Shown one piece after another: positions 4,896 to 63,351 of a stretch of 64,000 nucleotides of DNA (positions are counted from its first letter, which is position 1; each line of letters opens with the position of its first letter). The DNA comes from an uncultured virus (IMG/VR IMGVR_UViG_3300045911_000603). Lineage: Duplodnaviria; Heunggongvirae; Uroviricota; Caudoviricetes. The notes below the pieces were generated by a model that did not search any database, was not told the origin of the DNA, and saw only the letters and a program-made list of their open reading frames with translations. A program made the position numbers and the translations under genes. The stretch is from IMG/VR virus record IMGVR_UViG_3300045911_000603; one strand, 5' to 3'.

Positions 4896-5291
4896 CTACC
4901 ATCCAGTGGTGTTTGCAGGAGCGTGGCCTTGCGCGGCGAGCGAGCAGGTGGTGTAGGCCGTGCCCACGGGGGGGACCGTGGTGCCGAAGGTGTAAGCCCC
5001 CCCTCCCGGGCAGGTTGGAACCGCAGGCAGCATACCGGCGGGGCCGATGAGACGGGCTTCTCCGGTGGTCAGCCCTGCGCCGATGTTGAGTCCATACATG
5101 GAGGCGTAGCTGCGCACGGCTTTCTGCATGTTGCTGATGTTCATCACGCAGTTGGCCCGGTTGACCCCGCGCAGATAGCCCTGCACGCCGACAAAGAGAA
5201 CCGCAATCAATGCCAGCAAGATGGCAATGACGGCAGCAATTTCAATCAGGGTGTAGCCTGATTTGTTTCGTGGCGTGGTGGTTAGTTTCAT
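4896..5291 (-). CDS. Type IV pilin (copy 2)
   Basis: Class III signal G|YTLIEIAAVIAILLALIAVLF; Cys residues in the globular domain. Confidence 0.9.
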   Translation of the reverse strand: MKLTTTPRNKSGYTLIEIAAVIAILLALIAVLFVGVQGYLRGVNRANCVMNISNMQKAVRSYASMYGLNIGAGLTTGEARLIGPAGMLPAVPTCPGGGAYTFGTTVPPVGTAYTTCSLAAQGHAPANTTGW

Positions 5292-5316
5292 AGTAGTGAA
5301 GGCATGATGTATGACG

Positions 5317-5715
5317 TTACCATCCAGTGGTGTTTGCAGGAGCGTGGCCCTCTCCGGCGAGCGAGCAGGTGGTGTAGGCCGTGCCCACGGGGGGGACCGT
5401 GGTGCCGAAGGTGTAAGCCCCCCCTCCCGGGCAGGTTGGAACCGCAGGCAGCATACCGGCGGGGCCGATGAGACGGGCTTCTCCGGTGGTCAGCCCTGCG
5501 CCGATGTTGAGTCCATACATGGAGGCGTAGCTGCGCACGGCTTTCTGCATGTTGCTGATGTTCATCACGCAGTTGGCCCGGTTGACCCCGCGCAGATAGC
5601 CCTGCACGCCGACAAAGAGAACCGCAATCAATGCCAGCAAGATGGCGATGACGGCAGCAATTTCAATCAGGGTGTAGCCTGATTTGTTTCGTGGTGTGGT
5701 GGTGGTTAGTTTCAT
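5317..5715 (-). CDS. Type IV pilin (copy 1)
   Basis: Near-identical to 4896-5291; start reassigned to ATG at 5715 (MKLTTTTPRNKSGYTLIE). Confidence 0.9.
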   Translation of the reverse strand: MKLTTTTPRNKSGYTLIEIAAVIAILLALIAVLFVGVQGYLRGVNRANCVMNISNMQKAVRSYASMYGLNIGAGLTTGEARLIGPAGMLPAVPTCPGGGAYTFGTTVPPVGTAYTTCSLAGEGHAPANTTGW

Positions 5716-5767
5716 AGTAGTGGTGGTTGTTGGTTGTTGGGTGGATGATTTTTGCTTTAAGGTAATC

Positions 5768-6115
5768 TCAGGCAGCTTGGGCGGCGAAATAGCGGGATAA
5801 AAAATCAGGAATCGCCTCATCGAGGAACTCCGCTTCCTCCTCGCTTTCGGTCGCATCTTCCGGCGTGATTTGAGGCATGGAGTTTTTGAGGGATCGGCGC
5901 ACAAAATCGTGCAGGGCGAGCACGCTATTGACAGGGAGAGAGTGATTGCGGGAAGTCCCCGCCTTTTCGTATTGGTCGTAAGCGTCCGTGATTCGGGCGG
6001 CCAACAGATCCCGGTCGGCCTCCGTTTGCATCCAGAAAAGCGTCAGGTATGCCGGATTGGTTTTGCGCAATTCCGTCATGTAAGCCTCGGCAAAAATGTC
6101 AATTCCGTAAATCAC
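5768..6115 (-). CDS. Hypothetical acidic protein
   Basis: 115-aa ORF co-oriented with neighbours, natural composition. Confidence 0.6.
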   Translation of the reverse strand: MIYGIDIFAEAYMTELRKTNPAYLTLFWMQTEADRDLLAARITDAYDQYEKAGTSRNHSLPVNSVLALHDFVRRSLKNSMPQITPEDATESEEEAEFLDEAIPDFLSRYFAAQAA

Positions 6116-6262
6116 ACTTGCGGCAAGGCTACTGGTTTTAATTAACTTGTCAAGTTGCCAAAACGATCAAAAAATCTGCTTAAAAATGCCCTGTTTTTGC
6201 ATCCTGTTCGGATGGTCCCCGAGAGGTTTGGGCGACAATCTGCTTATAGCAAGAGTCCTCGC

Positions 6263-7183
6263 TCAAACACCGCAAATGCCAGCGCACTCATTTTGCATCG
6301 TGTTCCATTGTGGCATGCCGGGATCTTCCTTCTCGTCGAGATTGACTTGATCCAAGGGGATGCGGGCGGGATGCAGGAAGGGAATACCTCGCATATTGTC
6401 CGAATGGCGTTTGACAGCCTGGAGATCGCGCTCAAATTGCACCGCCTTGGCAAACTCGGCTGGTTCCTGATCGCGGAGCCTGCGCCACTCCTTATTCGAG
6501 TGGTATGGGCAATACACGCAAGCCGAGCGGGGTGGTTCCGGGTATCCGCGTTTTGCCATCCAGTTCAGGCAGTCTTGCCGGGACATGCCTATGTCAATGA
6601 GTGGGTAACGATGCCTCACCCACGGCTCCCGACTCTGCTTCATGCGCCCCACTTCATCGAGCGAGATCCCAATCCATGTGGTTACGGTGCAGACCTTCTG
6701 GCCCCGCTTGACTGCGGCCAGGCGGCGTTGCGCTTTGCGCAGGATGTCGATTTTGTAGTCGTGGGTGCAGGCCCGTTGCATGTGGCCCTTTTTGCCATCT
6801 GGCTCCAAGGTGAACACGGGCAGCAGACTTTTGCTCCACGGTTTGCCGACCGATTTGACCCGTTCGCGGAGGCGGAGGGCTTCTGCCGTCATGTCGCCCT
6901 TGGTGATGCGAAACACCGGAAAGGGTAATTGGGTTTCGAGCCAGTCGAGCCAGCGATATACGCTTTGCGGTTCCGCTTGCGTGTCGGCAAAGATCGCCGC
7001 ATCAGGCATGGGAGAGACTTCTCCCCGCGCCGCCATAAGCGCGAGCGTCGAGGACTGCACCCCTGCGCCCAGGCTCAGAAAGTGCCAATGATCCTTGCCT
7101 GGCGTGATTGGTTCGAGGTCCGAGAAGAATTTTAGACCGGATTGTTCCCGCCCTTTAAGTCCTTCTCGGCTAGGGGCTTTTTT
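6263..7183 (-). CDS. PAPS-reductase-like (PP-loop, Cys-rich) protein of the phage/plasmid type; probably reached by a -1 frameshift from the upstream gene
   Basis: LSLGAGVQSS PP-loop-like motif, AIFADTQAEP, SACVYCPYH, terminal ECAGICGV. No ATG/GTG/TTG in frame between the track's start at 7285 and the PP-loop. Confidence 0.75.
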   Translation of the reverse strand, partial: KKAPSREGLKGREQSGLKFFSDLEPITPGKDHWHFLSLGAGVQSSTLALMAARGEVSPMPDAAIFADTQAEPQSVYRWLDWLETQLPFPVFRITKGDMTAEALRLRERVKSVGKPWSKSLLPVFTLEPDGKKGHMQRACTHDYKIDILRKAQRRLAAVKRGQKVCTVTTWIGISLDEVGRMKQSREPWVRHRYPLIDIGMSRQDCLNWMAKRGYPEPPRSACVYCPYHSNKEWRRLRDQEPAEFAKAVQFERDLQAVKRHSDNMRGIPFLHPARIPLDQVNLDEKEDPGMPQWNTMQNECAGICGV

Positions 7184-7200
7184 TCCGCAGATTCCCCCTT
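7120..7200 (-). other. Candidate programmed -1 ribosomal frameshift signal
   Basis: SD-like AAGGGGG, 10 nt, A_AAA_AAG (7183-7177) in frame, 7-nt spacer, then stem CCGAGAAGGA / TTCTTCTCGG. Confidence 0.7.
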
Positions 7201-7668
7201 GGCAGTGTTGATGCGGAAAAAGGTGTTGCGCCCTTGGACAATGCGCTCGAATCCGGGCGTTTCTGGTCCGACTTTGTGGACCCAATTTCGGACCTGCGCG
7301 GTGCTGCGCTGCACGATTTCCGCAAGCTGATTGACGCTAAGACCGCCTTGGGGAGCGGCTTTGAGCGCATTGAGCATCGAGGACGTGAAATCCCCCCTTT
7401 TCGTTTTGCCATCATGGAGGATGGCCGGAGGCACGGGCTTGATCTCTGGACGGACGGGCTGCTTGGCGGGTTGCGCAACCACAGGGCTGGCTTTCTCGCC
7501 GGTTGTGCGCGGCGAGGCAGTTGGGCCCGTTGCGTCTCCATTACGGAGATTGATGCTCTGCACGAAGGCATTGATGCGGCTTTCCAGGCTTTCCCGCTCG
7601 GCCACCAGTTTGGTGAGGGCGGCAAGGTCTTGTGAGGACAGTTTCGTTAGGTCGATTTGTGGGATCAT
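7132..7668 (-). CDS. Nucleoid-associated-type DNA-binding protein (coiled coil, Pro/Ala linker, C-terminal winged HTH)
   Basis: N-terminal helix LAALTKLVAERESLESRI; C-terminal MLNALKAAPQGGLSVNQLAEIVQRSTAQVRNW HTH-like. Confidence 0.65.
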   Translation of the reverse strand: MIPQIDLTKLSSQDLAALTKLVAERESLESRINAFVQSINLRNGDATGPTASPRTTGEKASPVVAQPAKQPVRPEIKPVPPAILHDGKTKRGDFTSSMLNALKAAPQGGLSVNQLAEIVQRSTAQVRNWVHKVGPETPGFERIVQGRNTFFRINTAKGESAEKKPLAEKDLKGGNNPV

Positions 7669-7674
7669 GGTTTA

Positions 7675-7887
7675 TTATACGCAGGGGGTTGGGGTTGGTT
7701 TTGAGGGGGATGGTTGCATATCTTGCTGGCCTTGCAAACGCCCTTGCAGGATGGCTTCCGCGAGGGCCGTAATGACGACGGTTTCCAGATCGGTTTTCTC
7801 CATTTTGGCGTCCATGTAATACTCCACGGCAGCAGCAATCCGACGACTCTCCTCCTCGATTAGATGGTGCGTTGTCATGGTTCGCAT
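7675..7887 (-). CDS. Small hypothetical protein
   Basis: Co-oriented and tightly packed within the operon. Confidence 0.5.
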   Translation of the reverse strand: MRTMTTHHLIEEESRRIAAAVEYYMDAKMEKTDLETVVITALAEAILQGRLQGQQDMQPSPSKPTPTPCV

Positions 7888-7920
7888 GGGCCTTACTCCA
7901 TTGATGAAGGATACGCGCAG

Positions 7921-8613
7921 TCAACGTGGTTGCAAAATCTCATCGGCTTGGATGCGCTCCTCCTCAGTTAAGCCATCCATTCCCGCAGGGATTTGTCCTG
8001 GCGCGGGGGAGCTTGGCACGGCGGGCACAGGCGACGGATTGGCCGATGCCTGCCTCAACCGAACAATTTCCGCGTTCATTTCCTCCTGCTTGGCTTGGAG
8101 AGCTTGCAATTCCTTGTTGAGAGCAGCCATCTCCTGCGACTCCGCGCCCATCCCTTGCTCGCGCAGACGGGTTTGGGTTCTCTCCACGTCCACGATTTGT
8201 CGTCCGAGGGCTTGCACGGTGGATTGCAGCCGCTTCTGCTCCTGTTCCACACGTCGCATGCGCGTGGCGGCCGTGGCGGCATCGGCGCGGGCGGCCGTGC
8301 TTGCTGCATCCATCGGGCTTTGCGTCACCGTGTTGCCGACAAGCACCTGCTGGGAGGCATTGCTGGCCAGTCTCCATCGAGCATCCTGCTCCACGCGATA
8401 GACTACGCTGCGCTCGTGCATTACTCTAGGGTTGGCTGGATCGACATACCGATTGACCGGGTAGGCTTTGACGGTTTCGCCCACCCGCACGTTGGCTTGT
8501 GATTCCAGAGGAATGGTCGGAGGAGGAGCGATCACTCGGGATGGTGGAGAAGCGCATCCGGCCAACAGCACGGCCATGGATATGCCAGCAAGGAGGTTGG
8601 TTGGTTTGTGCAT
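7921..8613 (-). CDS. Conjugation-associated lipoprotein with coiled coil
   Basis: Lipobox LAG|C; lies downstream of virB10; C-terminal heptad-rich region. Confidence 0.65.
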   Translation of the reverse strand: MHKPTNLLAGISMAVLLAGCASPPSRVIAPPPTIPLESQANVRVGETVKAYPVNRYVDPANPRVMHERSVVYRVEQDARWRLASNASQQVLVGNTVTQSPMDAASTAARADAATAATRMRRVEQEQKRLQSTVQALGRQIVDVERTQTRLREQGMGAESQEMAALNKELQALQAKQEEMNAEIVRLRQASANPSPVPAVPSSPAPGQIPAGMDGLTEEERIQADEILQPR

Positions 8614-8649
8614 AGATCGGTGTGTTAGGGTGGAATGGAGCAGTTCGTG

Positions 8650-9045
8650 TTACCAGCCGGTGGTGTCAGGAGGGTTGTGTCTGGCCCCTGCCCCGCAACT
8701 GATGACGTAGGCAGTTCCCCAATCGGGGACGGTTGTGGCAAAGGTGTATGCCCCAAATTCCGGACATGCAGGCATTTCCGGAAACATGCCATCGGTTCCG
8801 ATGAGTCGAGCATCGGTGGGGTTCAAAGGTGCGCCAATGGGTAATCCATACATGCTGGCCACCGAACGGACACTTTTCTGGATCGTGCTGCGATTGAGAA
8901 TACATTGCGTTCGATTCACGCCCGCTCGGTAGCCTGTGGCGACCACGAAAAAGACGCCCAGCATCATGAGGAAGATGCCAATGGCTACAGAGACCTCGAT
9001 CAAGGTGTAGCCTGCTTGGTGAATATGTCGTGCGGAAAACTTCAC
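8650..9045 (-). CDS. Type IV pilin (divergent third paralog)
   Basis: G|YTLIEVSVAIGIFLMML; aligns along its length with the duplicated pilins (GVNR..C..N...QK.VRS.ASMYGL, CP..GAYTF.TTVP, TTGW end). Confidence 0.9.
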   Translation of the reverse strand: MKFSARHIHQAGYTLIEVSVAIGIFLMMLGVFFVVATGYRAGVNRTQCILNRSTIQKSVRSVASMYGLPIGAPLNPTDARLIGTDGMFPEMPACPEFGAYTFATTVPDWGTAYVISCGAGARHNPPDTTGW

Positions 9046-9048
9046 AAC

Positions 9049-10374
9049 TCACGGTAAGGGGGAGGATGTGGACGGGGCTGATGGAAAGGGAGAGGTTGCG
9101 GCCGGGGATGATGGCTCCATTTGATAAGAATCCGTCCTGGTTGGGGTGATTACTGGAAATCGGGTGGTGGAACGGATTTCGTCCTCGCGACGTTGAGCCT
9201 CCAAGCGGCGGCGGCGTGCTTCGGCTTCCTCGGCCACCGCTGCGGAATCCCCCACCCTGGCGTCAGTAATGTCGATGGTTTGGCGCACGTAGAGGTAGAA
9301 TTGTGTGCCTCCTGGAACTCTGGTGTAGAAACCGTTGGTTTTGATTTCTTCGAGAATTTGTTGAGCGAACTGGTCGATGACCGATTGTGAGCCTGCCTGG
9401 AGGCCCGCGAAAGGCGAATTGAGGATCGGCGTCACATCGCTGCCGCCTGATCCTCCGAGATTCGGATTAAGCACGATGTTGGTATTACCAACAGCATTGG
9501 CCACTGCGCCAAGAAACTCAGCCGCAAACAGCTTCACTTCCGCCCATTTGTCGCTCTTGATGGTTTCGCCCAATAAGCCGAAGGAGCCGTCCAACACTCC
9601 CCAGGATCGTTGGCCTGCAAATTCTTCCTCTTGACGGGCTAGAGCCACCCCGTCCACGACAATCTCCGTGCCATTGAGAATGTCGCTAAACCCCGGCAGA
9701 ACGATAATCCACTTGCCCTCGGCGCGAATGCGGCCTTTCTCCCTGTCCGTTTGGGCCGTGCCATGAACTTCGCTGCCAGCCGGAATAATCAGGTTCCCAT
9801 TCCACCACAAATCCTCCGTGACCATCCCGATCACCGGAGTTTCCACGCGGCTCGAATCGACCGTGAAAACGAGCTTGCATTGCAATGGTCGTCCAAAGGG
9901 CGCGAATCGTTCCGAGAACGGTCGGATGGGGGGAGTGACATTCTGAAATTCCTGTCTCGCCTCTACGGGCGCGGGCGTGGGAGTGGAAACCGGGCGCACG
10001 CGCAGACCGATGCGATTGTTGACGAGGCCGGTTGGGACGATTCCCGCAGGCACCCCGGCGGGATCATCGGATTCCTGCGCGGGCTTTTCCTCCTGAACCA
10101 CCGTTGCCGGTTCGCCCCATCTACTGACGGGGGGGGTGGGGGCGGGAGTTGGTGGGGCTGGCTCTGGAAGTGCCCCAGCCGTAATTCTTTGGATGGTGTC
10201 AACGGGTGCTCCCAATACTTCCTGCGGGGCATCCATCGGATCTTCTGCTTTTTCAGCGGAGGATTTCCGCCAGTCGCCGAAGCCGAAAATCAGCACCCCA
10301 AGGGCCACACAAAGCAACAAGAGAATCCCGAGCTTGGACTTGAAGAAGGAAATTGCCTCTCTGACGTTAAACAT
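9049..10374 (-). CDS. virB10: TrbI/VirB10-like T4SS core protein
   Basis: N-terminal TM, Pro-rich stalk, TPVIGMVTEDLWWNGNLIIPAGSEVHG and YTRVPGGTQFYLYV typical of the TrbI domain. Confidence 0.85.
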   Translation of the reverse strand: MFNVREAISFFKSKLGILLLLCVALGVLIFGFGDWRKSSAEKAEDPMDAPQEVLGAPVDTIQRITAGALPEPAPPTPAPTPPVSRWGEPATVVQEEKPAQESDDPAGVPAGIVPTGLVNNRIGLRVRPVSTPTPAPVEARQEFQNVTPPIRPFSERFAPFGRPLQCKLVFTVDSSRVETPVIGMVTEDLWWNGNLIIPAGSEVHGTAQTDREKGRIRAEGKWIIVLPGFSDILNGTEIVVDGVALARQEEEFAGQRSWGVLDGSFGLLGETIKSDKWAEVKLFAAEFLGAVANAVGNTNIVLNPNLGGSGGSDVTPILNSPFAGLQAGSQSVIDQFAQQILEEIKTNGFYTRVPGGTQFYLYVRQTIDITDARVGDSAAVAEEAEARRRRLEAQRREDEIRSTTRFPVITPTRTDSYQMEPSSPAATSPFPSAPSTSSPLP

Positions 10375-23620: not shown

Positions 23621-26600
23621 TTAGTTTGCCACCCCCGCAATGCGGGGTGGTTCCTCCTCAATATCCGGTTCCGGAGCCTGTTGGAAATCGGTTTCCACAA
23701 TGTTGCTCGCGTCCTTGTTGGATGGGTTCTCTGCCATTTCCGCCTCCTCGCGCCGTTCCCTGGCGGATTTGCGCTTAAAGGGATTCACACGCATGTCGGT
23801 TTCGAGGGCATCAAGCTGTTCCTGCAACTCATTGACACGGGCTTCCAGCGATGCACTGGATGGGGCATTTTCCAATTGCTCCCTGGCCACCGCGAGATCC
23901 TTGATGGTTTGCTCCAGCTTGTTTTTGAGCTGTTCTGGCTCCCTGGCCACGGTCTCATAGCGCGACTGGATCATCTTGAGGATTCCGTTGGCCGTGCCAA
24001 AGGTGAACTCGTTGCCGAGTTTCTGGTCATCAGGACCAAGGCATTGGCCGACCAGAATGGCTTTGGTTCCATCCGCAATGCTTTTCTGCTCCCTGGTCAC
24101 GCGCACCTTCATACCCCCGACCTCCAGATAACCGAGCGGCTTCACCACGGCATCACTGGCCGTAAAGACAATGCGTTTCCACTGCTCAAAGCGTTCGTCG
24201 AGCACTCGAATAAGCTCATCCAGCGAGGCTTTGCCATCCGCTCCTGGCAACTCCTCAAACACGGTATTTTTCGTGGGACGACCTTTTTCGTCCAGTTCAG
24301 GGACACGGATGTTGGGGTTGTGGGGAAGCCGGTAGGAAAGCAACTGATTCTCGGGGCAGGAATGCGGAGGCGTAACCTGCTCCATGAGTTTGAGCGAATA
24401 CAACTCACGGGCGGGCAGAATTTCCTCTATTTCTTTCCGGTTTCTTTCCAAGAGCCGAATATTGCGCTCCAGATTGAGCCGTCGTCCCTGCACGACCTCC
24501 ATCTCCGTTTTCGCCTCCTTGATGGCCAGTTGGAGTTCGGCCCGGTGCAATACCCTCTTGTCGGAAATGAGGGCGGCTTTCATCTGATTGAGATCAATGC
24601 TTCCGGCATCCTCAAATTCGACTCCCACGCCCCTTCCCGCCATGGCCTGATTGACAAACGCTTCCTTGCGGGCAATGCGGTCAAAAATCCCCGGCATGCA
24701 GGTATCCTTCATGCCGTAGTAGATCACCTTGATTTTCTCGTTCTTGTTGCCCTGCCGGATGATGCGACCATTGCGCTGGGTCAGATCCGCTGGGGTCATG
24801 GACCGTGGAGGATCGGCATGATGGGCGCAAATGAGGTTCTCTTGGAAGTTACAACCAGTTCCGATCCGCGTCGTGCTGCCAATGACAACCACATCCGGTT
24901 CGGTATTGGCCCGGTCGAGCATGGCTAGTTTCTCATCCTTGCTCTTCGCCTCGCTTGGAATGATGATTTTATCCGGACTCCATCCCTGCGCAATCAGTTT
25001 GTCGCGGATGTCGTGGTAGAGGTTGAAATTGCCGCGAGTGGCTCTCAATTCCTCTACATCAATCTCCTCCTCGTTCTCCTCGTCCTCTTCGTCTTTCGCC
25101 TCATTTTTCTTGGCATTTTCCTCCGCGTCCTCCAATTCAATGGTCGCAGAGGTGATTCCTCCGGTGCGGATTTTCTCCAAAATGGAGGTATCCATTGTGC
25201 GGTATCGGTCCAAGAAAATTACCTGCGCCTTGCCGGGGTTCTCCTTCCCGACTTGGATGACGTTTCTCACCAACTGATTGACCAAGGAATCCGGGCTATC
25301 TTCGGCTTCTTCGTCAATGAGCCGGGGATCAATGGCTGCGGCCATGTTGACCTGCATCAACATGATGGGAATCCAGGAAAACTTCTTCTTCGCCTCCCCA
25401 GTCATACGCTCGAAATTTGCATAAATTTCCGAACAGCCATCCACCATGTCAGCCACGGTATCGGTCAACGGCACCACTCGCATTTCGGGCTTGCCTCCCT
25501 CCAACTCGGGGAGGACCAATCCAGCCTCAACCGGATCGTTGCGCACATCCATGCCTCCGCGAATCAGGCGAATGAACATTTCGCCATTGATGAACTTGCG
25601 CAGACGGTCCACCTCTTTCCATTTCCCGCTCGCCTCGTTGAGTTCGAGCTGCGTGCTTTTCTCGCAGAACATCCGCGCAAATCGGTCGAAGTGCGTCACT
25701 CCGTATTCCTCCAGGATTTTGGGGTAGAACATGCGGAGCATATTCCAGGCTTCCGCCATCGTGTTGGTCACAGGGGTGGCCGTGGCTCCAATCACCCCTT
25801 TGCCGTTCCGCTGGCTCTGAATCGAGCGAAACTTGATGAGCGCATTGACCGCTTTTTGCGAGTTGCTGGTGTCCAGCCCCTTGATGTTGCGCATGCTCGT
25901 CACAAAAGGCGAGCGTTTGTATCGGTGGGCTTCGTCCAGCAGGAGCAGATCCACGCCGAGGCTCTGAAAATCCATCGTGTTATCCTGATTGTCCCGGAGA
26001 GCCTTAATGAGATTGGAGATTTTGGCGGTCTCCTTCTCGATGGCTTTTTGCGTCTGGCGAACCATCCGGCGAATGGCTCCATCTCCCGATCTCTCGCCGC
26101 CCTCCAGATCCAGGGAGCGCAGGGTTGCCCGCAACTCATTGATATGTTGTTGCGCGTATTCAATCTGGCTTTGCGGCGAGTTGGGAATCCGGTCAAAATG
26201 GCTTTGGGGCATGAGAACAATGTCCCAATTCCCTGTGGCTACCCTGGAAAGGAATGCCGTCCGATTGCGCTCATTCATGCTATCCTCATTCGAGCAGAGA
26301 ATGTTTGCCTGCGGATAGAGTTCACGCACCGCGCGAACAAACTGCGCATAGTTCGAGTTGTCGCAGACGATCATGGGTTTTTTGGCCAATCCGGTTCGCT
26401 TGCTCTCAAAGGCCGAGATAATCAGCGTGGCCGTTTTGCCGTAGCCCACATCGTGCGCCACGATGCCTGCCTGCTCCTGCAAGAGCCGGGCCACCGCCGC
26501 TTTCTGGACAGGGCGCGGTTTGAAGTGACTGGAAAGCCCAGGAATGCGCAGGTAGTCGCCTTGATAATTCGGAATGACCGAATGGTTGATCCGGTCATTG

Positions 26601-29600
26601 AAGGCCTGCTCTACGGCATTGCGGGCCACTTCATCCTCCTTGATGAAATCCTCAAAGGCCTTGCGCACGGACTGCACCCGGTCATTGGCCAGATTGGATT
26701 CCTTTTCATTGCGGATGGTCTCCCCCTCAAATCCTTTGTCGAAAATTTGGATCTTCTCGTCGTTGAGAGCCGCCGTCACAATATCCAAAGCGGATTTGCG
26801 CGAGGTGGAAAACTCGGCAGCGGATTGCGTGGCATACGCATTCCCGCCCACGATCCAACGGTTGGCTCCATCCAAGTAAGCCGCAGAGGCGTTGGAAATC
26901 CCACATCGTTGCGAAAGGAACCGATCCACCGCTTCCACGGGCAACCACGATGCTCCAAGTTGGGCGCGAATGGCGGAAATTGTCACCATCTCGGGTTGCA
27001 CGGCTTCCAGTGCCTCGATATTCGGTTCGTAGATTTCCGCGTTAATTGCATTGGCCGACGCCGCTTTCTTGGCTGCTTGCAATTTGCTTCGGACATTGCC
27101 GGAGAGATACTTCTCCCGAACCTGATACAGCCCGCTCTCGGGGTCGAGAAACGCCCGCCCGCTGCGACTGATGAGGGTTTCGACCCCGGCCACATCCTCG
27201 GTGCCCATCAGTTGGGCCACCCGCGCCGGATCGACATAGCCCTTCTCGCTCAGAGAAAGGTAAATTGCATCCTCCACATTGTCTGCGGATTGCGCCGGGG
27301 AATAAGGAAACAAAGTGCGCTCCCGCAGAATTGCGGCCTTGGAATAGACGTTGATTTTCTTGCCATCGGAGGTGCGCTCCTCGCGCACGTTGGCCAAAGC
27401 AAGGACGGCTCCGTATTCAGGATCAAAGGACAGCAGACGGTCGTGGGCCGGATTTTCGCCAATATCGCCCCATTTGGCGACAAAACGATCATACTCCGCG
27501 TTCAGAGCAACGCGGCAACTCTCGCTTTCACTGTCCGAGGTAATCGGATTAAGATCAACAGCAATCTGCCGCTTGAGGGCATCCCGGAGAGCAGCAAAAT
27601 CCGCAGCCAGTTCATCCGCCCGCGCCATATCAAACCCCCGGGGCAGGGTGGCCATTGGTCCCCGCGAAGTAGTGAATGTGAATACTTCGCCTCGGACGAT
27701 TCTATACGCCTGCATCACATCCTCCTCCGTGACTCCCAGGTTGGCGGCAATTTGGCCAACTGGGAGACGAGAACGAACCTGCTTCTTGAGTTGCTTGACC
27801 TGCTCGGGCGAGAGGATGGGCTGCTCTTTTACCTTGGTGCGCAGAATTGCCTCAACTTCCCTCTTCCACGGAGGAGGTATCAGTTTGCGGTCCGGTCCCA
27901 CAGAGAGCAGTTGTAATCCTTGCTCGGTTTCCGCGAGGATAAAGTTTTCCTCCTTGGCATCCAGTCCCGCATAGATTTCCTCCGTCTGCGCTGCTTCTTC
28001 TTCGAGCGCAGCTGGTTTAGCGGCCATGCTGGAGTTTGGCACATTGGCCGGAAGTCGTCCGATGGCTTCCCGAAGGGCAGTCAGCAAGTCCTCCCCCTCC
28101 CTTGGCTCCACCGTGTATTGCCCGCGTTCGCTTCGGCCATACATTCGGCCCGCCAGAGAGTGATGCCCCAGGACCATTTCGGGATGCCGTTGGAAATACT
28201 CGTTGACGGACACCACTTTGATGGGATCGCCCGTAAGCCGATTGAAATAACGAGACTCATCCAGGTCCACCGGAAGGTTGTCACGGAAGCTCTCATGGGG
28301 GACGGATTGCAGGTCCGGTTTGCGGAGAACCAGAATGTCCGTCACGACCTCCGTGTTGGCATTGTCGGCAAATGCGGAGTTAGGCAGGCGAATCGCCCCC
28401 AAGAGTTGCGCGTTTTCAGACAGGATGCGGCGTTGGGAGGGATTGTTCTCCATCGTGGATGCCGAAGTGATGACGATCTGAATCCCACCAGGTTTCAGGC
28501 GTTTTTGGCCCTCATTGATGAAAAAGTTGTGCAGGTTTAGGGGTTCTCCGTCCTGCCCTGGAGGTGGGGTGTCGGAGAAGGGCACATTGGTAATCACCAA
28601 GTCCTGCGACCCCAGGCGAATCTGCTTGGCGTCTTGGAATGCCGAGTGAATCACCTTGGCTTCCGGGTAAAGGAGTTTGGCAATGCGGGCGGAAACCTGA
28701 TCCAACTCCACGCCAGTCACAAGACTGCGTTCCAGGAGATGGGCGGGGGCTGCTCCCACAATGTCGCCAATGCCCATCGCAGGCTCCAAGATCGCGCCTC
28801 CCTGAAAGCCGATCCGCTCGGCAATCTCCCACAATGCGTGACACACTTCGGGGGAGGTATAATGCGCATTGAGGGTGGATGCCGCCGCCGCGTTCCACTC
28901 CTCCTCTGTCAGAACTTCCTTGAGCGCATCGTAGTGCCTGCCATACTCCTTTTCCCATGATTGGTAGGCGGGAAAAGAACTGGCGTAGGACAAATTGCGG
29001 AAAGCCCCCATTTGCTCATTGAACACTTCCTTGTAGGCTCCCCATCCGGTGTAGGCAGCCAGAACTTGTTTTTCCTCGGGAGAGGGAAGTCGCCCCATGG
29101 CCTCCAATTCCTTGGAGAGCCGAATGGCGCGAAGATTGGCTTCGATGCGCGTTACCTTGCCCCTGGGTTTGATTTCCTGCCCAAGCTCGTAGGAATAGTT
29201 GCGCTGCTCAGCGGAAAGATTAGCTCGTTCCGCTTCGCGCCAAGAGGTAAGAAAGGACTCCAGGTTGGTGTAACTTTCCCAATTCTCGGCGGCCCAGGAA
29301 CTCAACCGGGCATGCGCCTCCTCCAATTCCTCGACTTGGGTGGCGACCGTAAAACGGGAGAGCATGGCATTGGAGAGACGGGCAATGCGGGCCAGGATTT
29401 CTTCGCGGCGACCAGTTTTGGCTTCCTCTGTCTCCGGTTCGGGCGGGGCGGGATCGCCTTGATAATAAACCTCCTCGGATTGCGCCGCTTCTGCTTCCTG
29501 CTGTGCCTCTGCGGGAGTGGTTGCGGCGGCGGCCGTTCCCTCGGACACCACCACATAGCCACTACCATCCTCGGATACCGTGGCCCTTACCACCTCGGGA

Positions 29601-29689
29601 GGACGAACCTCTCCGTTCTCGTCGAGCAGTTCATCCAGCAGATCAAAAAAGTTCGTGTCGATGGGATTGCGGTTGCGCAGGGTGGCCAT
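23621..29689 (-). CDS. DarB-like N6-adenine methyltransferase / SNF2-type helicase fusion
   Basis: MTase motifs ILEPAMGIG and NVPF; helicase HDVGYGKT, DEAH, TATP, QRNGRIIRQGN; 2022 aa. Confidence 0.9.
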   Translation of the reverse strand: MATLRNRNPIDTNFFDLLDELLDENGEVRPPEVVRATVSEDGSGYVVVSEGTAAAATTPAEAQQEAEAAQSEEVYYQGDPAPPEPETEEAKTGRREEILARIARLSNAMLSRFTVATQVEELEEAHARLSSWAAENWESYTNLESFLTSWREAERANLSAEQRNYSYELGQEIKPRGKVTRIEANLRAIRLSKELEAMGRLPSPEEKQVLAAYTGWGAYKEVFNEQMGAFRNLSYASSFPAYQSWEKEYGRHYDALKEVLTEEEWNAAAASTLNAHYTSPEVCHALWEIAERIGFQGGAILEPAMGIGDIVGAAPAHLLERSLVTGVELDQVSARIAKLLYPEAKVIHSAFQDAKQIRLGSQDLVITNVPFSDTPPPGQDGEPLNLHNFFINEGQKRLKPGGIQIVITSASTMENNPSQRRILSENAQLLGAIRLPNSAFADNANTEVVTDILVLRKPDLQSVPHESFRDNLPVDLDESRYFNRLTGDPIKVVSVNEYFQRHPEMVLGHHSLAGRMYGRSERGQYTVEPREGEDLLTALREAIGRLPANVPNSSMAAKPAALEEEAAQTEEIYAGLDAKEENFILAETEQGLQLLSVGPDRKLIPPPWKREVEAILRTKVKEQPILSPEQVKQLKKQVRSRLPVGQIAANLGVTEEDVMQAYRIVRGEVFTFTTSRGPMATLPRGFDMARADELAADFAALRDALKRQIAVDLNPITSDSESESCRVALNAEYDRFVAKWGDIGENPAHDRLLSFDPEYGAVLALANVREERTSDGKKINVYSKAAILRERTLFPYSPAQSADNVEDAIYLSLSEKGYVDPARVAQLMGTEDVAGVETLISRSGRAFLDPESGLYQVREKYLSGNVRSKLQAAKKAASANAINAEIYEPNIEALEAVQPEMVTISAIRAQLGASWLPVEAVDRFLSQRCGISNASAAYLDGANRWIVGGNAYATQSAAEFSTSRKSALDIVTAALNDEKIQIFDKGFEGETIRNEKESNLANDRVQSVRKAFEDFIKEDEVARNAVEQAFNDRINHSVIPNYQGDYLRIPGLSSHFKPRPVQKAAVARLLQEQAGIVAHDVGYGKTATLIISAFESKRTGLAKKPMIVCDNSNYAQFVRAVRELYPQANILCSNEDSMNERNRTAFLSRVATGNWDIVLMPQSHFDRIPNSPQSQIEYAQQHINELRATLRSLDLEGGERSGDGAIRRMVRQTQKAIEKETAKISNLIKALRDNQDNTMDFQSLGVDLLLLDEAHRYKRSPFVTSMRNIKGLDTSNSQKAVNALIKFRSIQSQRNGKGVIGATATPVTNTMAEAWNMLRMFYPKILEEYGVTHFDRFARMFCEKSTQLELNEASGKWKEVDRLRKFINGEMFIRLIRGGMDVRNDPVEAGLVLPELEGGKPEMRVVPLTDTVADMVDGCSEIYANFERMTGEAKKKFSWIPIMLMQVNMAAAIDPRLIDEEAEDSPDSLVNQLVRNVIQVGKENPGKAQVIFLDRYRTMDTSILEKIRTGGITSATIELEDAEENAKKNEAKDEEDEENEEEIDVEELRATRGNFNLYHDIRDKLIAQGWSPDKIIIPSEAKSKDEKLAMLDRANTEPDVVVIGSTTRIGTGCNFQENLICAHHADPPRSMTPADLTQRNGRIIRQGNKNEKIKVIYYGMKDTCMPGIFDRIARKEAFVNQAMAGRGVGVEFEDAGSIDLNQMKAALISDKRVLHRAELQLAIKEAKTEMEVVQGRRLNLERNIRLLERNRKEIEEILPARELYSLKLMEQVTPPHSCPENQLLSYRLPHNPNIRVPELDEKGRPTKNTVFEELPGADGKASLDELIRVLDERFEQWKRIVFTASDAVVKPLGYLEVGGMKVRVTREQKSIADGTKAILVGQCLGPDDQKLGNEFTFGTANGILKMIQSRYETVAREPEQLKNKLEQTIKDLAVAREQLENAPSSASLEARVNELQEQLDALETDMRVNPFKRKSARERREEAEMAENPSNKDASNIVETDFQQAPEPDIEEEPPRIAGVAN

Positions 29690-45789: not shown

Positions 45790-45910
45790 GTTACTACAGG
45801 TTACTGCGGGTTACTACGGGTTACTACGGGTTACTGAAGAACACTCTACATTACTACATGATACTAAAGGTTACTAAAGGTTACTACGGGTTACTACGGG
45901 TTACTACGGA
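45790..45910 (+). repeat. Array of about 12 10-bp units (GTTACTACGG consensus)
   Basis: Seen directly; intergenic between virD4 and the rep-like gene. Confidence 0.9.
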
Positions 45911-52569: not shown

Positions 52570-52731
52570 TCATGTAGTAACTCGTAGTAACGCATAGTAA
52601 CCCGTAGTAACGGATAGTAACAGATAGTATCGGATAGTAACGGATAGTAACGGATAGTATCGGATAGTAACGGATAGTATCGGGTAGTATCGGATAGTAA
52701 CGGATAGTATCGGATAGTATCGGATAGTATC
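52570..52731 (+). repeat. Array of about 16 10-bp units (CGGATAGTAW consensus)
   Basis: Seen directly; unit CCCGTAGTAA is the reverse complement of the 45790 array unit. Confidence 0.92.
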
Positions 52732-56380: not shown

Positions 56381-59300
56381 ATGAATGCCCATTCAATGAA
56401 TCCACATGCTGCCAAAAATCTAACTACTGCAACCGAGAAATTCATTCATGGTAATGTTTGGGGGTTCGACCTTGGCACAGGGTCCATCGCTCACGCGGTC
56501 AGATCCGGGGCAGAGTTTCGTGATGTGGGCGTCCTGATTTGCGATAGCGAAATTGGTGCGTTGGTTAAACGCAATGAAAGAAGACGTAACCGCCGAACTC
56601 TGCGTTCCAGAAATTACAGACGCAAGTGGACAACGGAGCAGTTGGAACGCATCGGCATCCCAAAACCTAACGCTGATTTCTACAAGAAGCAGGCCAATGA
56701 ATCCCACGAGCAATTCCAACATCGAACCAATCCTGTCATTCTTCGCTGTCGCGCTTTGTCTGGCGAACCCTTGGATCCGATGCAGTTGCATGCGGCAATT
56801 TCGCACCTCTGGAAACGTCGAGGTTATGAGCCTGCGGTCCCGTGGAGCAAGGAAAGCGAACCAACGAGCAGAAAACGTGCAGGCGAAAAGAATAAATCAG
56901 AATGGGTAGGAATGGTCTCACCTGAGCAGAACCAAAAGGAATTCAATCAAAGCGGGGACGAGTATCCCGCGCAGTTTCTTAAACGGCTCATGGAGAGCAG
57001 AATCGCGGCGAATACATGGCCGCGTGGCAAATACGATCAGCGACGACGTGTGTGGTTGCGCGAATTGCTGGTGAAGGAATTCCGAGCAATAGTCGCCAAA
57101 AATGATGTTCTCCAGAAAGACATAACATTCACAAATGAGAATGGCAAGACTCTGACCATACCATTCGCGCAATGGCTTCTTTATGGTGATGGCGAACTAC
57201 GCACACGGAATGGGAAAGAGTGTAGGTGGTATGAGAAGTCATCACAAGGTCGCAATCCTGGCGTGCTTGGCCTCAAATGGCCTCGATTCAACAATCGCAA
57301 TCCTTCCCTGGACATGCTCCACCCCTACGATGCAAATGGGCGACCTCAGCATGTCGTCAGCAAAGATTCGCCTATCGCTCGCCAAGCCATGTGGAAGATC
57401 GCCACCGTCAACTTCATGGTTACAGATCTCAAAACCGGCAAACGTGTGCGACCCAGCCAGGAGAGTCTAGTCAAACTCGAAGAAATCTGGTTGAACTCGC
57501 TCACCAAAAAAGAACGCGAGAAATACTTGGCGGGCCATCATGATTTTGATGTCAAAATTAGTGCGAAGGATAAGATAAACAAGAAAGGTGAGGTTTCCAA
57601 GGAAAGCATCCTGACCAAGTGGATTTCGCTTTATCGGGACCAGTATGCCTTGCTGGAGGATCAGCAGGATCTTGTATCTTATTCGGGCGAGGGCCGATCT
57701 CGCTATTCGACGCCCACCCTCAAGGCGATATTGGCAGGTGATGACGAGGCGTTGCAAAAGACACCTCAACCTGTCCTCGTTCGTCAGGGACAAAGCCGCG
57801 AAGATGCAATGCGGGAGTTTTTGGCCAATGTTCGCAGTCCATTGGTGCGCCACCGTCTGACTTTGTTTCTTCGGGTGCTTGACAATCTGGTCGCAAAATA
57901 CGGACTTCCTGATTTAATCATCGTCGAGGCGGCTCGCAGTTTTGGCATGGGACGCAAGGCCAAGGAGGAATACATGAAAGTCCTGGCCTCCAATAAGGAG
58001 GAGAACAACCAAGCCGTTGATCATGCCAAAAAGGAGGGATTCTCAACCTCCAAAAAGGCTTTGTTGCGTTACAAATTATGGAAAGAAGCTGATGGTCGTT
58101 GTCCCTTCTGTGGAAAAGCAATATCCATTGAGCAATTTAAGAATGGTGACGCAGACATCGCTCACATTGTCCCAAGGTCCATCCGCGCATGCAACGATTT
58201 CTACAACCTAACCGTTGCTCATGCTGATTGCAATAGGCGCGAAATGGAGAACAAGATTCCTCGTGATGCCTTTGGCCACCGCTGGCACGAGTTGGAGGCC
58301 TTTGCCCGCTCGCACTTCAAGGAAAAAAAACTGGAGCTTTTCCTAGCCTCCAACCTCGCTGAAGCGATGGATATTCTCGACGCCAAGAACCATCTCTGCA
58401 TGACAGCGTATTTGTCTAAGTTGATACGTCGTCTGTGCATCATCCGCTTTGGCTGGCAGGGTAAGGATGGACGCGACCCGTCCGACGAGGCAGGGAATCT
58501 GCCAAGCCAGAAATTCCTCGTAACCAATGGCAGCATCACCTCAGAGCTAAGGCGGGCCTGGGGTATCAACACGCTACTGCACCCCGTGGCTTCTTATACG
58601 GATGACGAGTGGCGAAATCTTTCCGAGAAGGAACGCGAGAAAGTCAAGGAGAAGCGTCGGAATGCTCAGAGTAAGAATCGTGGCGATCTTCGTCATCATG
58701 GACTTGATGCCATGGTTATTGCTTGCACGCTGCCTCACCTCGCCAGGCGAGTCGTGGACCGCGGCGAGGATGCCGAAGGCAATCTGATTTGGTGGAAAAT
58801 GCGCGAGCGTAAAAGGCGGATACTAGCCGTCAATCCTGTGTTTCCGGGTTTTGGCAATTTCCGCAAGGAGGCCGAAAAATGGCGCGACAGCATGACAGTG
58901 CTCCATCATGTAGCAAGTTCGCGAAATTGCCAACCAGCCCAGACCACATTTTACTCCAGGCGAGGTATTGAGAAATTCATCGCCCGTGAAGAGGTCACCA
59001 ATCTTTCCCCGAAAGATCTCCATGCTGAAGGATCGCGCATATGCCGCGTTCATCCTGAAGAGCTGGGTCATTACTTGCATTTGCTTTGGGTGCGTTATAC
59101 GCATCAAATGCGAAACTACTTGGAGGCTGTGCGTGACTCCTGGCTAAAGGAGCACCCGTTGACCACCCAAGAAAAACCCGAGGAAGTAGTTAAAAAATTC
59201 AAAAAACGCCTGCGCTTTGAGGAATTTGAACTATGGCGTTGCTGTGGCAAGCTGTTTCCAGCCACAATTCCAGACGAACCTGTCCACCCTATCAGGATTC

Positions 59301-59992
59301 AAGGCAAGATCGAACCTGCTTATCCAGAAGGAGGCCATCCCACTTTTATTCTGCCTGATTGCCAGGACTTGTTCTCAAACCTGACTTCGGACTTTGCAAA
59401 TCGCCTTTGTTTTTCGGCCTTTCAGAAATGGAGGGCCAGAGGCATGCCTGCGAATCCCGATTTCCCAAATCGTGTGCGCATTCCAATTACCAAGGTGCGC
59501 TACATCGCCAAACTTAGCCTCGGCAATGCGGTGCCAGGTCCAAAAACCATGCCTGGTTTCGGCTCATACCCTGTCTATGTGAGCCGAACCGAAATCCACG
59601 AGGTTCGCATCTCGCCAGCCAAGGCAGGCGATGGCTTCCTGCCTGTTTTTGTGCCTACTGGTCGCAACTATCCATGGGCCTCGCCCTTCGGCGAATACAT
59701 GAAGGATGTCAAGCCCGTGTGCATAATTCGCAAGCGTCAGCGAATCCAACTCGTTGAAGACTATAGTCAATCTGTCGTGGCGGGCACGTATGTTGTAGAG
59801 GTATTGTGCGCATATCACGCAATCATTAGCCTTCCCCATGTTGCCCGCAATCCTGAATCCCGAAAAGCCTTCGGCATGCCCGCATCAGGATTCAAAGTTC
59901 TTTGGAGCCGTTTGATTCCTGCAATAGGAATTCCCTTCTCGGCCAGCGCATTGGGTAAAAAAATCCATGAGGAGGAGGATCAGAATGGATAG
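56381..59992 (+). CDS. cas9: Type II-C Cas9
   Basis: RuvC-I GFDLG, Arg-rich bridge helix, KRRGY, RuvC-II IVEAAR, HNH CPFCG...IAHIVP...NLT...CN, RuvC-III HHGLDA. Confidence 0.95.
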   Translation: MNAHSMNPHAAKNLTTATEKFIHGNVWGFDLGTGSIAHAVRSGAEFRDVGVLICDSEIGALVKRNERRRNRRTLRSRNYRRKWTTEQLERIGIPKPNADFYKKQANESHEQFQHRTNPVILRCRALSGEPLDPMQLHAAISHLWKRRGYEPAVPWSKESEPTSRKRAGEKNKSEWVGMVSPEQNQKEFNQSGDEYPAQFLKRLMESRIAANTWPRGKYDQRRRVWLRELLVKEFRAIVAKNDVLQKDITFTNENGKTLTIPFAQWLLYGDGELRTRNGKECRWYEKSSQGRNPGVLGLKWPRFNNRNPSLDMLHPYDANGRPQHVVSKDSPIARQAMWKIATVNFMVTDLKTGKRVRPSQESLVKLEEIWLNSLTKKEREKYLAGHHDFDVKISAKDKINKKGEVSKESILTKWISLYRDQYALLEDQQDLVSYSGEGRSRYSTPTLKAILAGDDEALQKTPQPVLVRQGQSREDAMREFLANVRSPLVRHRLTLFLRVLDNLVAKYGLPDLIIVEAARSFGMGRKAKEEYMKVLASNKEENNQAVDHAKKEGFSTSKKALLRYKLWKEADGRCPFCGKAISIEQFKNGDADIAHIVPRSIRACNDFYNLTVAHADCNRREMENKIPRDAFGHRWHELEAFARSHFKEKKLELFLASNLAEAMDILDAKNHLCMTAYLSKLIRRLCIIRFGWQGKDGRDPSDEAGNLPSQKFLVTNGSITSELRRAWGINTLLHPVASYTDDEWRNLSEKEREKVKEKRRNAQSKNRGDLRHHGLDAMVIACTLPHLARRVVDRGEDAEGNLIWWKMRERKRRILAVNPVFPGFGNFRKEAEKWRDSMTVLHHVASSRNCQPAQTTFYSRRGIEKFIAREEVTNLSPKDLHAEGSRICRVHPEELGHYLHLLWVRYTHQMRNYLEAVRDSWLKEHPLTTQEKPEEVVKKFKKRLRFEEFELWRCCGKLFPATIPDEPVHPIRIQGKIEPAYPEGGHPTFILPDCQDLFSNLTSDFANRLCFSAFQKWRARGMPANPDFPNRVRIPITKVRYIAKLSLGNAVPGPKTMPGFGSYPVYVSRTEIHEVRISPAKAGDGFLPVFVPTGRNYPWASPFGEYMKDVKPVCIIRKRQRIQLVEDYSQSVVAGTYVVEVLCAYHAIISLPHVARNPESRKAFGMPASGFKVLWSRLIPAIGIPFSASALGKKIHEEEDQNG

Positions 59993-59994
59993 GC

Positions 59995-60987
59995 ATGAGA
60001 CACATTATCCATCTTCTCGGTCCCCACATTAGCGCACGTCTGTCGCGGGATCAGCTTGTCATTGAGGATAGATCCAAAGAAACCCAACGAACGGTGCCCG
60101 TGGAGGACATCGGCTTGCTTATCTGCGCGGCCAATGACACTGTTTTTACCGCCAGTGCTCTGCGGCGTCTAGCGCAATGGAATGTGCCTGTGCTCGTATG
60201 CAATGAATCCTACGAGCCTGCGGCCATGTGCCTGCCTTACTTTCGGCCAACGGATACTGCATTGCTTCGTTCTCAGATAACGTGGGATCTGGAGTGGCAA
60301 GATGCGATATTTCGCCGCCTGATCACGGCCAAGGTAAGGAATCAGGCAGCCAATCTTGAAGGCAAGGCCAGCGATGTTGTGCGCGCCATCGCCGCCCGCT
60401 GTGCTGCCGGAAGGTTTCGTGCAGCAGATCAACCAGGGTCCGGTAAGAGAATCGCCACGGTAACCGGCAGCCGTCGCCACTTGCTGTATTCAGATACTCC
60501 TGCGGCCTGCGAATCCCGGGCCGCAAGGATCTATTGGAGGCGATTTCTTCCACCGCTCATTGCGAAGCTGGGAACGACAGAAAAAACTCGGATCCACGGA
60601 ACCCGAATGGGAGTAAATGGCATGCTCGACTACGGCTACGCAATTCTGCGCAGTGCCGTTCTACGCGCTCTTGCATCTCGCGGGTTTATTGCCGCATTGG
60701 GCCTGCACCACACAGCCCGAGCAGGCACTTTCGCTCTGGCGGATGATGTAATGGAGCCCTTTCGTCCTTTCATCGACCGCGCTTTACGCAACTATCTTGA
60801 GTCAGCAGAAATGCCTGATATGCGCGGGTGGATGCGTAATGCGGCGGATGTGCTAATGCAACCAGTCAAGATGCCTGCGGGCAATGTGCGCTTGCTGCAT
60901 GCACTGGACTTTGTAGTTAAGGATCTCGCTCAACTATCCATCAAGAATGACCCGAATGGAGTCCTCCCCATTCCGATTCTGGATTGA
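59995..60987 (+). CDS. cas1: Cas1
   Basis: VPVEDI, ESRAARIYW, NGMLDYGY, LGLHH, LADDVMEPFRP. Confidence 0.95.
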   Translation: MRHIIHLLGPHISARLSRDQLVIEDRSKETQRTVPVEDIGLLICAANDTVFTASALRRLAQWNVPVLVCNESYEPAAMCLPYFRPTDTALLRSQITWDLEWQDAIFRRLITAKVRNQAANLEGKASDVVRAIAARCAAGRFRAADQPGSGKRIATVTGSRRHLLYSDTPAACESRAARIYWRRFLPPLIAKLGTTEKTRIHGTRMGVNGMLDYGYAILRSAVLRALASRGFIAALGLHHTARAGTFALADDVMEPFRPFIDRALRNYLESAEMPDMRGWMRNAADVLMQPVKMPAGNVRLLHALDFVVKDLAQLSIKNDPNGVLPIPILD

Positions 60988-61331
60988 ATGCGCAGCGGAA
61001 CATGATTTGCACCAAATACCGCATGGCCTGGGTGGTTGTTATGTTTGATCTGCCGGTCGGAACTCCACAGGAACGTAAACTCGCCACGCATTTCCGCGAG
61101 GATTTAATCAGGGATGGTTATTTCAAGATGCAGTTCAGTGTGTATGCCCGCCCCTGCGGGAGTCCAGACAAAGCTGAAACCCACATGCGGAGGCTCAAAA
61201 GCAGAATACCTCCATGCGGCGAAGTTCGGGCTCTTACGATCACGGATGCGCAGTGGGGCAGAATGGTAGTCTTCCGAGGTCAGAAACAGACCAAATCGGA
61301 GAAGATGCCTGAGCAGTTGATGTTTTTTTAG
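60984..61331 (+). CDS. cas2: Cas2
   Basis: VMFDLP, FREDLIRDGYFKMQFSVY; no csn2 or cas4 follows. Confidence 0.95.
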   Translation: MNAQRNMICTKYRMAWVVVMFDLPVGTPQERKLATHFREDLIRDGYFKMQFSVYARPCGSPDKAETHMRRLKSRIPPCGEVRALTITDAQWGRMVVFRGQKQTKSEKMPEQLMFF

Positions 61332-61332
61332 C

Positions 61333-61467
61333 AAAAAACCGCCTCCAGCAGTAAATACTGGAGGCGGCAATAACCTTGCATCCTGCGGGTGTCATTGCTG
61401 ACAGTGCCGCAAGTTGGTTTGCTTATTTGGGATGTATGACCTCAATCCGACCAGGATCTTCTATACT
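61333..61467 (-). ncRNA. tracrRNA
   Basis: Anti-repeat AGTATAGAAGATCCTGGTCGGA...ATCCCAAAT followed by AAG, hairpins and terminator CCGCCTCCAG/CTGGAGGCGG-TTTTTT. Confidence 0.9.
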
Positions 61468-61474
61468 CGCAATG

Positions 61475-61502
61475 AGATTAGCAGAATTCTGCGTTCCGTC
61501 AA
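61475..61502 (-). promoter_or_regulatory. tracrRNA promoter
   Basis: TTGACG-N16-TAATCT with extended TG; palindrome GCAGAATTCTGC in the spacer. Confidence 0.6.
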
Positions 61503-61505
61503 CCT

Positions 61506-62929: not shown

Positions 62930-63351
62930 GTTATTATCCCTGCGGCTAGAAAGAAGTAACCTTGGTAATTTGGTAATGGGGTTGCCGTGCCCTCGACGAT
63001 GCCGAGAAGTTGGGCATTGTTCGTGCTGATGGCCCGTCTCACGCTGTATGTGTGTTCTTGGCCCTTTAAATCTTTTACCGTTTTCTCAATTGCGAGGATG
63101 ACGTTGAATTCGCTCACCTCGATGTGACCTTCGGGGTTGGCGAGCCATTCCTGGGCAAAAGCCTCGTCGGCTTCGTATACGTATTTCAGCCAGACATTGG
63201 CCAATCCAGTGATGAAAAGGCTGCCTGCAAGTGCCGCAAAGATTAATTTTGAACGGTCAAGATGTTGATCTCCAAAGAGGTAGTTCCCGGTGTAAATGCC
63301 CATTATGAGTAGGACGAACGCGATGAGTAGGATTATGAGGAGAGCGGTCAT
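62878..63351 (-). CDS. Membrane protein whose 3' end runs through the terminal CRISPR repeat
   Basis: Three hydrophobic segments; last codons FGIALRPWPSIL are repeat-encoded. Confidence 0.6.
   Translation of the reverse strand: MTALLIILLIAFVLLIMGIYTGNYLFGDQHLDRSKLIFAALAGSLFITGLANVWLKYVYEADEAFAQEWLANPEGHIEVSEFNVILAIEKTVKDLKGQEHTYSVRRAISTNNAQLLGIVEGTATPLPNYQGYFFLAAGIITFGIALRPWPSILAANR

Follow-up and report, generated by a model that had tools for sequence, protein, structure and literature searches.

On the minus strand of a 64,000-nt stretch of DNA, analysed here in full and called the window, two genes overlap in different frames: ORF1, which encodes a small candidate DNA-binding protein, and a gene in the −1 frame that encodes an enzyme of the PAPS-reductase fold. 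The parts of a putative −1 frameshift signal lie at the overlap. The features are as follows.

7132..7668, minus strand: ORF1, 178 aa, with a long helix (residues 12–43), a Pro-rich linker, a winged helix-turn-helix (~90–155) and a non-conserved tail that holds the slip site
7674..7683, minus strand: TGCGTATAAT, similar to a −10 element and 5 nt upstream of the ORF1 ATG
7200-7194, minus strand: AAGGGGG, an internal Shine–Dalgarno (SD)-like element with a 10-nt spacer before the heptamer; its pairing (−10.5 kcal/mol) is calculated with an assumed E. coli-type anti-SD
7183-7177, minus strand: slippery heptamer A_AAA_AAG, in the ORF1 frame GAA AAA AAG (codons E162-K163-K164), followed by CC
between heptamer and stem, minus strand: 7-nt spacer, its first two letters CC
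7120..7169, minus strand: 50-nt stem-loop with arms at 7169-7160 and 7129-7120, forming a 10-bp basal stem with one G-U pair
7134-7132, minus strand: ORF1 stop codon TAA, inside the hairpin loop
6263..7177, minus strand: −1 frame ORF, 304 aa, with a linker of ~30 aa followed by an intact PHROG-424/SspD-like PAPS-reductase-fold (PP-loop) domain
7103..7108, minus strand: in the enzyme frame, ATC (7108) and ACG (7105), near-cognate codons that would form a rival start site

The sequence comes from a hot-spring community, and the window is a conjugative element with a TrwC-type relaxase, a coupling protein, a VirB4-like ATPase, TrbI, pilin-like genes, and Cas9 and Cas1 with an array. Its host probably belongs to the Verrucomicrobiota, because look-alikes of ORF1 occur mostly there and the VirB4-like protein has top matches there (41–44% identical, among 36 of 401 Verrucomicrobiota genomes, in a search confined to that phylum). 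Other parts of the element also deserve record. Positions 56381-62930 encode a divergent 1,203-aa Cas9 and Cas1 and hold a 22-repeat array, whose spacers have no convincing match in the window or the fetched loci. A type IV pilin-like gene shows a tandem 421-bp duplication (4897-5722; 97% match), with a third paralogue at 8650-9045, across the locus studied here. Two arrays of related 10-bp iteron-like repeats (45790-45909 and 52585-52729) flank a rep-like gene, an ScpB-like gene and TnpB, the second array directly preceding the TrwC relaxase. A 2,022-aa SNF2/ResIII helicase with an N-terminal methylase-like region, recognized by eye, is encoded at 23621-29689 and recurs on a related element in genome G154.

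A slip of one base backwards at the heptamer opens 304 codons up to the stop at 6263, for a fusion of 164 + 304 = 468 aa. ORF1 and the −1 frame overlap by 69 codons, and the sole in-frame A_AAA_AAG falls within the overlap. The original prediction had described a complete signal, running from AAGGGGG through 10 nt, A_AAA_AAG and 7 nt to a 10-bp stem with the TAA in its loop, and we found every element as described. The 67-nt stretch downstream of the heptamer has a folding energy of −22.9 kcal/mol (z −2.24), a value reached by 3 of 200 shuffles, and a wider 116-nt fold window is unremarkable, with a z of only −1.05. An Rfam search of 5500-9000 gave no match at E ≤1. A sigma-70 scan returned 1 promoter-like and 4 terminator-like sites, against 1.0 and 4.3 in shuffles; since these counts equal the shuffle level, we set aside a plus-strand terminator-like match over 7157-7179.

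The layout agrees with published descriptions of −1 sites. The heptamer has the X_XXY_YYZ form in the zero frame. Its SD spacing of 10 nt lies within the 9–14 nt given for frameshift SDs (PMC5009743) and passes the published GGNGG rule, with the host anti-SD assumed, and the CC that follows is the 3′ dinucleotide described there as most prone to shift. The hairpin begins 7 nt after the motif, inside the published 4–10 nt, and is more stable than its surroundings: it reaches 0.432 kcal/mol/nt, or 0.126 above the local mean, compared with 0.452 ± 0.124 kcal/mol/nt and an excess of at least 0.09 for the stimulatory hairpins of IS3 elements (PMC4066793). As in dnaX/IS3-type arrangements, the −1 ORF has no canonical start of its own, although near-cognate ACG and ATC codons are present.

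One stem-arm 8-mer is a common word in the window (11 occurrences against 2.9 expected), and we therefore used real-sequence backgrounds to gauge the rarity of the signal. In-frame A_AAA_AAG occurs once in 14,282 codons of 36 hand-picked window genes, where codon use predicts 1.6. Equally strong SD pairing is found at 1.6% of 3,000 random in-frame coding positions, or at 21% under the lenient rule of PMC4066793. A stem of at least 10 bp is found at 3.2% of 3,000 background positions, and 6.7% of 300 carry a hairpin whose energy per nt matches or betters the one seen here. The joint chance within the 69-codon overlap comes to ~4e-6 (strict) to 1e-4 (lenient), a post hoc figure that assumes independence and an E. 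coli-type anti-SD.

The gene layout is real DNA, as matching contigs and a second allele share it. We compared alleles using contigs from 4 of 14 hot-spring or microbial-mat metagenome runs. Contig X1 (depth 60), which may be the window's own source, is identical over 5665-9500. Contig X5, from the same sample on record, represents the second allele, which differs by 28 substitutions and 2 indels over 3,390 nt; the indels are a 12-nt deletion between genes and a 3-nt insertion within ORF1 that leaves its frame unchanged, and the A run is free of them. A partial contig from another study (X9) carries the same allele (13 of its 14 differences over 5665-7349 listed), and the coverage of contig X10 lies outside the junction. 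An indel in the A7 run, raised in the original prediction as the mark of an assembly error, is absent from the contigs of two alleles, and judged on contigs an assembly error behind the frame break is unlikely. Across 7032-7227 the second allele shows no change; with ~1.6 substitutions expected, this is not significant. Both of its 2 substitutions in the enzyme ORF are synonymous, and those in ORF1 comprise 4 synonymous and 2 non-synonymous changes. A third allele has the same ORF1 tail and one I-to-V change in the enzyme, and is likewise annotated from an internal ATG. All alleles with this layout are ~99% identical to one another and are thus too similar to show selection on the signal.

ORF1 is probably transcribed without a leader, to judge by the −10-like element so close to its ATG. 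The same 10-mer, TGCGTATAAT, stands 5 nt before the ATG of the gene starting at 15847 (15862-15847, minus strand), which suggests that both genes give leaderless transcripts from a common promoter type. The predicted structure of ORF1 comprises a helix (12–43), a low-confidence linker and a winged helix (~90–155), with a best Z of 9.6 among many winged-helix proteins. A profile search gave 45 matches, 44 of them outside the lineage and mostly proteins of 120–270 aa with one or two such domains, one match being probably false; none of the 44 resembles the enzyme. Family members were found in 22 of 401 genomes, one of them a stand-alone gene carried by a related conjugative element (G154), and ORF1 had no match among plasmids. 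ORF1 belongs to an unnamed Verrucomicrobiota family (P0126-P0169, L167-L190) that combines a coiled coil, a basic linker and one to six winged helices, a candidate nucleoid or silencer family.

The earlier label 'nucleoid-type' has its basis in the coiled-coil, linker and winged-helix architecture. Like xenogeneic silencers of the Rok/H-NS type, ORF1 has an N-terminal helix, a flexible linker and a C-terminal winged helix, and its homologues are found in chromosomes as well as on a related conjugative element. The similarity to Rok itself, however, is sub-threshold (WH_Rok falls below the cut-off in homologues, and the Rok structure has a Foldseek E of 0.16). From the architecture alone we infer a Rok-like role, in which ORF1 would bind DNA broadly and oligomerise. 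A complex prediction with two copies of residues 1–50 scored 0.17 against a mark of 0.42. The slip site sits in the non-conserved tail, past the winged-helix domain, and the fusion therefore keeps both domains whole.

The enzyme matches PHROG 424 (E 4.5e-42) and the PADLOC SspD model (E 4.8e-19), and searches of Pfam and NCBIfam gave no match. Its model (pLDDT 88.7) has the PP-loop/PAPS-reductase fold (VIA: Z 13.1, rmsd 3.5, 168 aligned to PAPS reductase 7rge; NcsA and APS reductase tied at 12.2), and a sequence search of the PDB returned only a weak match, to a chain named PptA (E 0.1). The SLGxGVQSS motif and six cysteines are invariant across 43 sequences, the SLGAG motif of the window lying at 7075. 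The domain is intact, scoring 499 bits against the homologue profile over positions 7–286 of 286. The family is large (7,674 of 8,000 candidates), with homologues on 200 plasmid and 53 phage records, one plasmid copy being annotated as a cytosine methyltransferase. Its neighbours, in 46 representatives of 219 clusters, are varied phage genes (terminases, helicases, two methylase clusters) with no fixed partner. More than 60 extra N-terminal residues are present in 87 of 120 long enzyme forms, the fused partners being ParB-like, N6/N4-methylase and, in many, DUF6339; the ParB-like partner comes from precomputed PF02195 matches and was not recovered at E 1e-5 in our own scan. The DUF6339 and PAPS-reductase-like in-frame fusions (P0208-P0289; ~540 aa) are numerous and form an apparently uncharacterised two-domain family. 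On a conjugative Rhizobium plasmid (L192, 4114-5945), a family member overlaps the end of an ArdC-family gene, with ParB and HU genes nearby.

By family, the enzyme would adenylate or thiolate DNA. The profile matches, PP-loop fold and conserved cysteines are shared with the phage and plasmid 'PAPS reductases' of PHROG 424 and with SspD/DndC, and the PAPS-reductase-like assignment of the original prediction is confirmed for fold and family. Its DNA-modifying role is drawn from the family, and the sspABC or dndABDE partners of Ssp and Dnd systems, by contrast, were not found among the window proteins scanned, where 0 of 35 further proteins match such PADLOC models at E 1e-5. Stand-alone enzymes of this kind have been proposed as anti-defence DNA modifiers (PMC13551039, which cites Piel et al. 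2022 for evasion of Dnd), and other prophage PAPS reductases have been argued to serve sulfur metabolism (bioRxiv 10.64898/2026.02.18.706556).

How the enzyme is started is central to the interpretation. An ATG, GTG or TTG of its own lies within 45 codons at 162 of 163 scorable family loci, the sole exception being the window (167 sequences, 165 placed, 163 with enough upstream DNA; the loci are partly redundant). The motif stands 4–40 residues from the N-terminus, with a median of 15, in 118 of 120 homologues among those listed. In the window, no ATG, GTG or TTG intervenes in the −1 frame between TTG 7285 (inside ORF1, 70 codons ahead of the SLGAG motif) and ATG 7036 (13 codons beyond the motif serine). 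The earlier statement that the −1 frame is a PAPS-reductase-like ORF with no start near its first motif therefore holds for ATG, GTG and TTG; it overlooked the near-cognate ACG 7105 and ATC 7108. With a slippage signal at the overlap and an enzyme gene that lacks a start, a minor fusion to the candidate DNA-binder is probably the sole form in which the enzyme is made.

The near-cognate codons offer another route, which we consider unlikely: the enzyme would be a protein in its own right, translated after weak initiation (or re-initiation) without an SD at ACG 7105 or ATC 7108, which may once have been an ATG, and the slippery elements would be incidental or secondary. These codons lie 10–11 codons before the first motif, within the family start range, and most alignments to homologues open on or beside the ACG (70 of 118 begin at residues 24–26). 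Their RNA surroundings are unstructured, and their context is about the median of true starts, with 48% and 44% of 27 true starts scoring no higher; yet 15–17% of internal codons score as well, so the context is not distinctive. A strong SD precedes only 6 of 27 starts in the element. Coupling and frameshifting can also coexist (PMC3711429). Against this route, none of the other 162 scorable loci needs a non-canonical start, the ORF1 stop is 27 nt from the site, and a start here leaves the joint occurrence of heptamer, SD and stem (1e-4 or rarer) unexplained. The −1-frame peptide FFSDLEPITPGK covers the ACG codon and the residues preceding it.

The original prediction had also pointed to homologous loci, where slippery sites or in-frame fusions of the same pair might be conserved, and we found none in the loci fetched. 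Both families occur at one locus in the window only, among 169 enzyme loci and 22 ORF1-family loci (window included; flanks 1.5–5 kb). The ORF1 domain is absent from the 120 long enzyme forms (best E 0.24), and the exact slip region had 0 matches among viral contigs. An in-frame A_AAA_AAG in the ORF1 homologue of G154 was rejected as a conserved site: it lies in the winged-helix TGKK motif, and its −1 frame closes 20 codons past the stop. The junction DNA resembles none of the fetched IS loci (best E 0.53), so capture of the junction from an IS is unsupported. Membership of the IS3 family was likewise dismissed, the −1 ORF having the PHROG 424/PAPS-reductase fold and not a DDE transposase.

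The signal is thus known from one lineage only, whose alleles are its sole carriers. This confinement, together with the stand-alone occurrence of both families elsewhere, would fit an enzyme gene whose start was lost recently and which is now silent or in decay, with any slippage adventitious and unselected. We find such decay improbable, as the enzyme domain is intact end to end and a full three-part signal is improbable by chance; the substitutions, 2 of 2 synonymous plus the I-to-V change in the third allele, also speak against it, weakly with 3 changes.

Some Verrucomicrobia are SD-scarce yet keep CCUCC (PMC10783764). Among Verrucomicrobiota IS3-type orfA ends (30 of 60 matches listed), A_AAA_AAG precedes a long −1 frame in 9 of 30, 2 of them cut by contig ends, and some slippery heptamer is present at 21 of 30. 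The window holds no tRNA gene; tRNA-Lys(CUU) is present in 4 of 5 genomes with related elements. Slippage efficiency should drop accordingly, this tRNA having been linked to poor slippage at AAG (PMC5009743). From the sequence signal and the tRNAs of related genomes, we infer that slippage occurs as a minority event.

One extra A added by the polymerase on the A7 run would produce the same fusion by transcriptional rather than ribosomal slippage, which we judge very improbable. The run is only 7 A long, efficient transcriptional slippage usually needing ~9, and the SD and the hairpin stand at the distances typical of ribosomal stimulators. In its favour, related genomes have two lysine tRNAs, as does Thermus, where dnaX uses polymerase slippage (PMC5009743). 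Scarcely credible is a 340-aa protein from TTG 7285 inside ORF1, which appears in the open-reading-frame list but has structured RNA, a context in the bottom 4% of true starts and a substitution at 7228 that is synonymous for ORF1 but Q-to-K in its frame, or the 248-aa protein from ATG 7009 carried in databases, which has an SD-like element (−8.1) before its ATG but lacks the invariant SLGAGVQSS loop and has that element (7025-7009, minus strand) folded into a 6-bp hairpin (z −1.43).

The mechanism of −1 slippage is textbook, and most described bacterial examples come from IS elements and phages (PMC4066793). E. coli dnaX and IS3 elements of the IS911/IS150 type share with the window an A_AAA_AAG heptamer, an internal SD ~10 nt upstream and a hairpin 5–8 nt downstream (PMC4066793, PMC5009743). 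IS3 elements also fuse a short N-terminal HTH protein to a catalytic domain by frameshifting; in the window, however, a PAPS-reductase-fold domain takes the place of the DDE transposase, and a coiled-coil/winged-helix protein serves as the putative DNA-binder. Slippage truncates the product in dnaX whereas it extends it in the window, and for the window signal conservation across lineages was not found. For frameshifting in a conjugative element, a +1 precedent is FseA (msi172-msi171) of ICEMlSymR7A, where a low-frequency programmed event fuses two ORFs and limits the product (PMC10359603). FseA differs in being a transcriptional activator made by a +1 shift, and its site is reported in ~61% of 4,709 homologues (PMC10359603), whereas the site in the window is lineage-specific. 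PHROG 424 homologues have a start codon of their own, which the window enzyme lacks. In the literature covered (main texts outside subscription), we found no −1 frameshift controlling a candidate DNA-modifying enzyme on a conjugative element; the main text of PMC3711429 does not mention the PAPS-reductase family.

Taken together, we favour −1 frameshifting at this locus, yielding a free 178-aa coiled-coil/winged-helix protein and a minor 468-aa fusion in this lineage specifically, with a probability of about 0.65. The frameshift reading draws support from the anatomy of the signal, its rarity, the missing start and the presence of the same motif in IS3-type elements of the probable host phylum, and is weakened because pair and signal recur in no other locus examined; the interpretation first offered for the locus keeps its anatomical basis and gains nothing from conservation. 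Ribosomes on ORF1 would stall once the two Lys codons occupy their P and A sites, with anti-SD pairing 10 nt upstream and the hairpin 7 nt downstream keeping them in place. The majority would read on and release the free 178-aa protein; a minority would slip back one base and continue through the linker into the PAPS-reductase-fold enzyme, making the 468-aa fusion the main or only source of intact enzyme. By adenylating or thiolating DNA, that enzyme would let the element escape host defences; the winged helix would direct it to DNA, and the frameshift would limit how much of it is made. The arrangement most likely arose from a pair of stand-alone genes that overlapped, the downstream one having since lost its start.

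A more specific form of the frameshift reading is tentative, and we hold it as doubtful. Here the frameshift would graft a partner-less DNA-modifier onto a small fraction of the element's silencer-like chromatin protein, the free form of which would coat the element's DNA; the fusion, assembling along with it, would mark this DNA by backbone adenylation or phosphorothioation at a fixed low stoichiometry, for defence evasion, replacing targeting by SspB/SspC or DndD/E. In Ssp systems the recognition subunit SspB is described as a winged-helix protein (PMC10853773).

For the enzyme family, current annotation of this locus starts the protein past its catalytic loop. If the frameshift reading is true, the locus would be a natural test of what stand-alone phage and plasmid 'PAPS reductases' do, and of how such enzymes find DNA without Dnd or Ssp partners. 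The locus may, in addition, show a recoding site shortly after it arose from a pair of overlapping genes.
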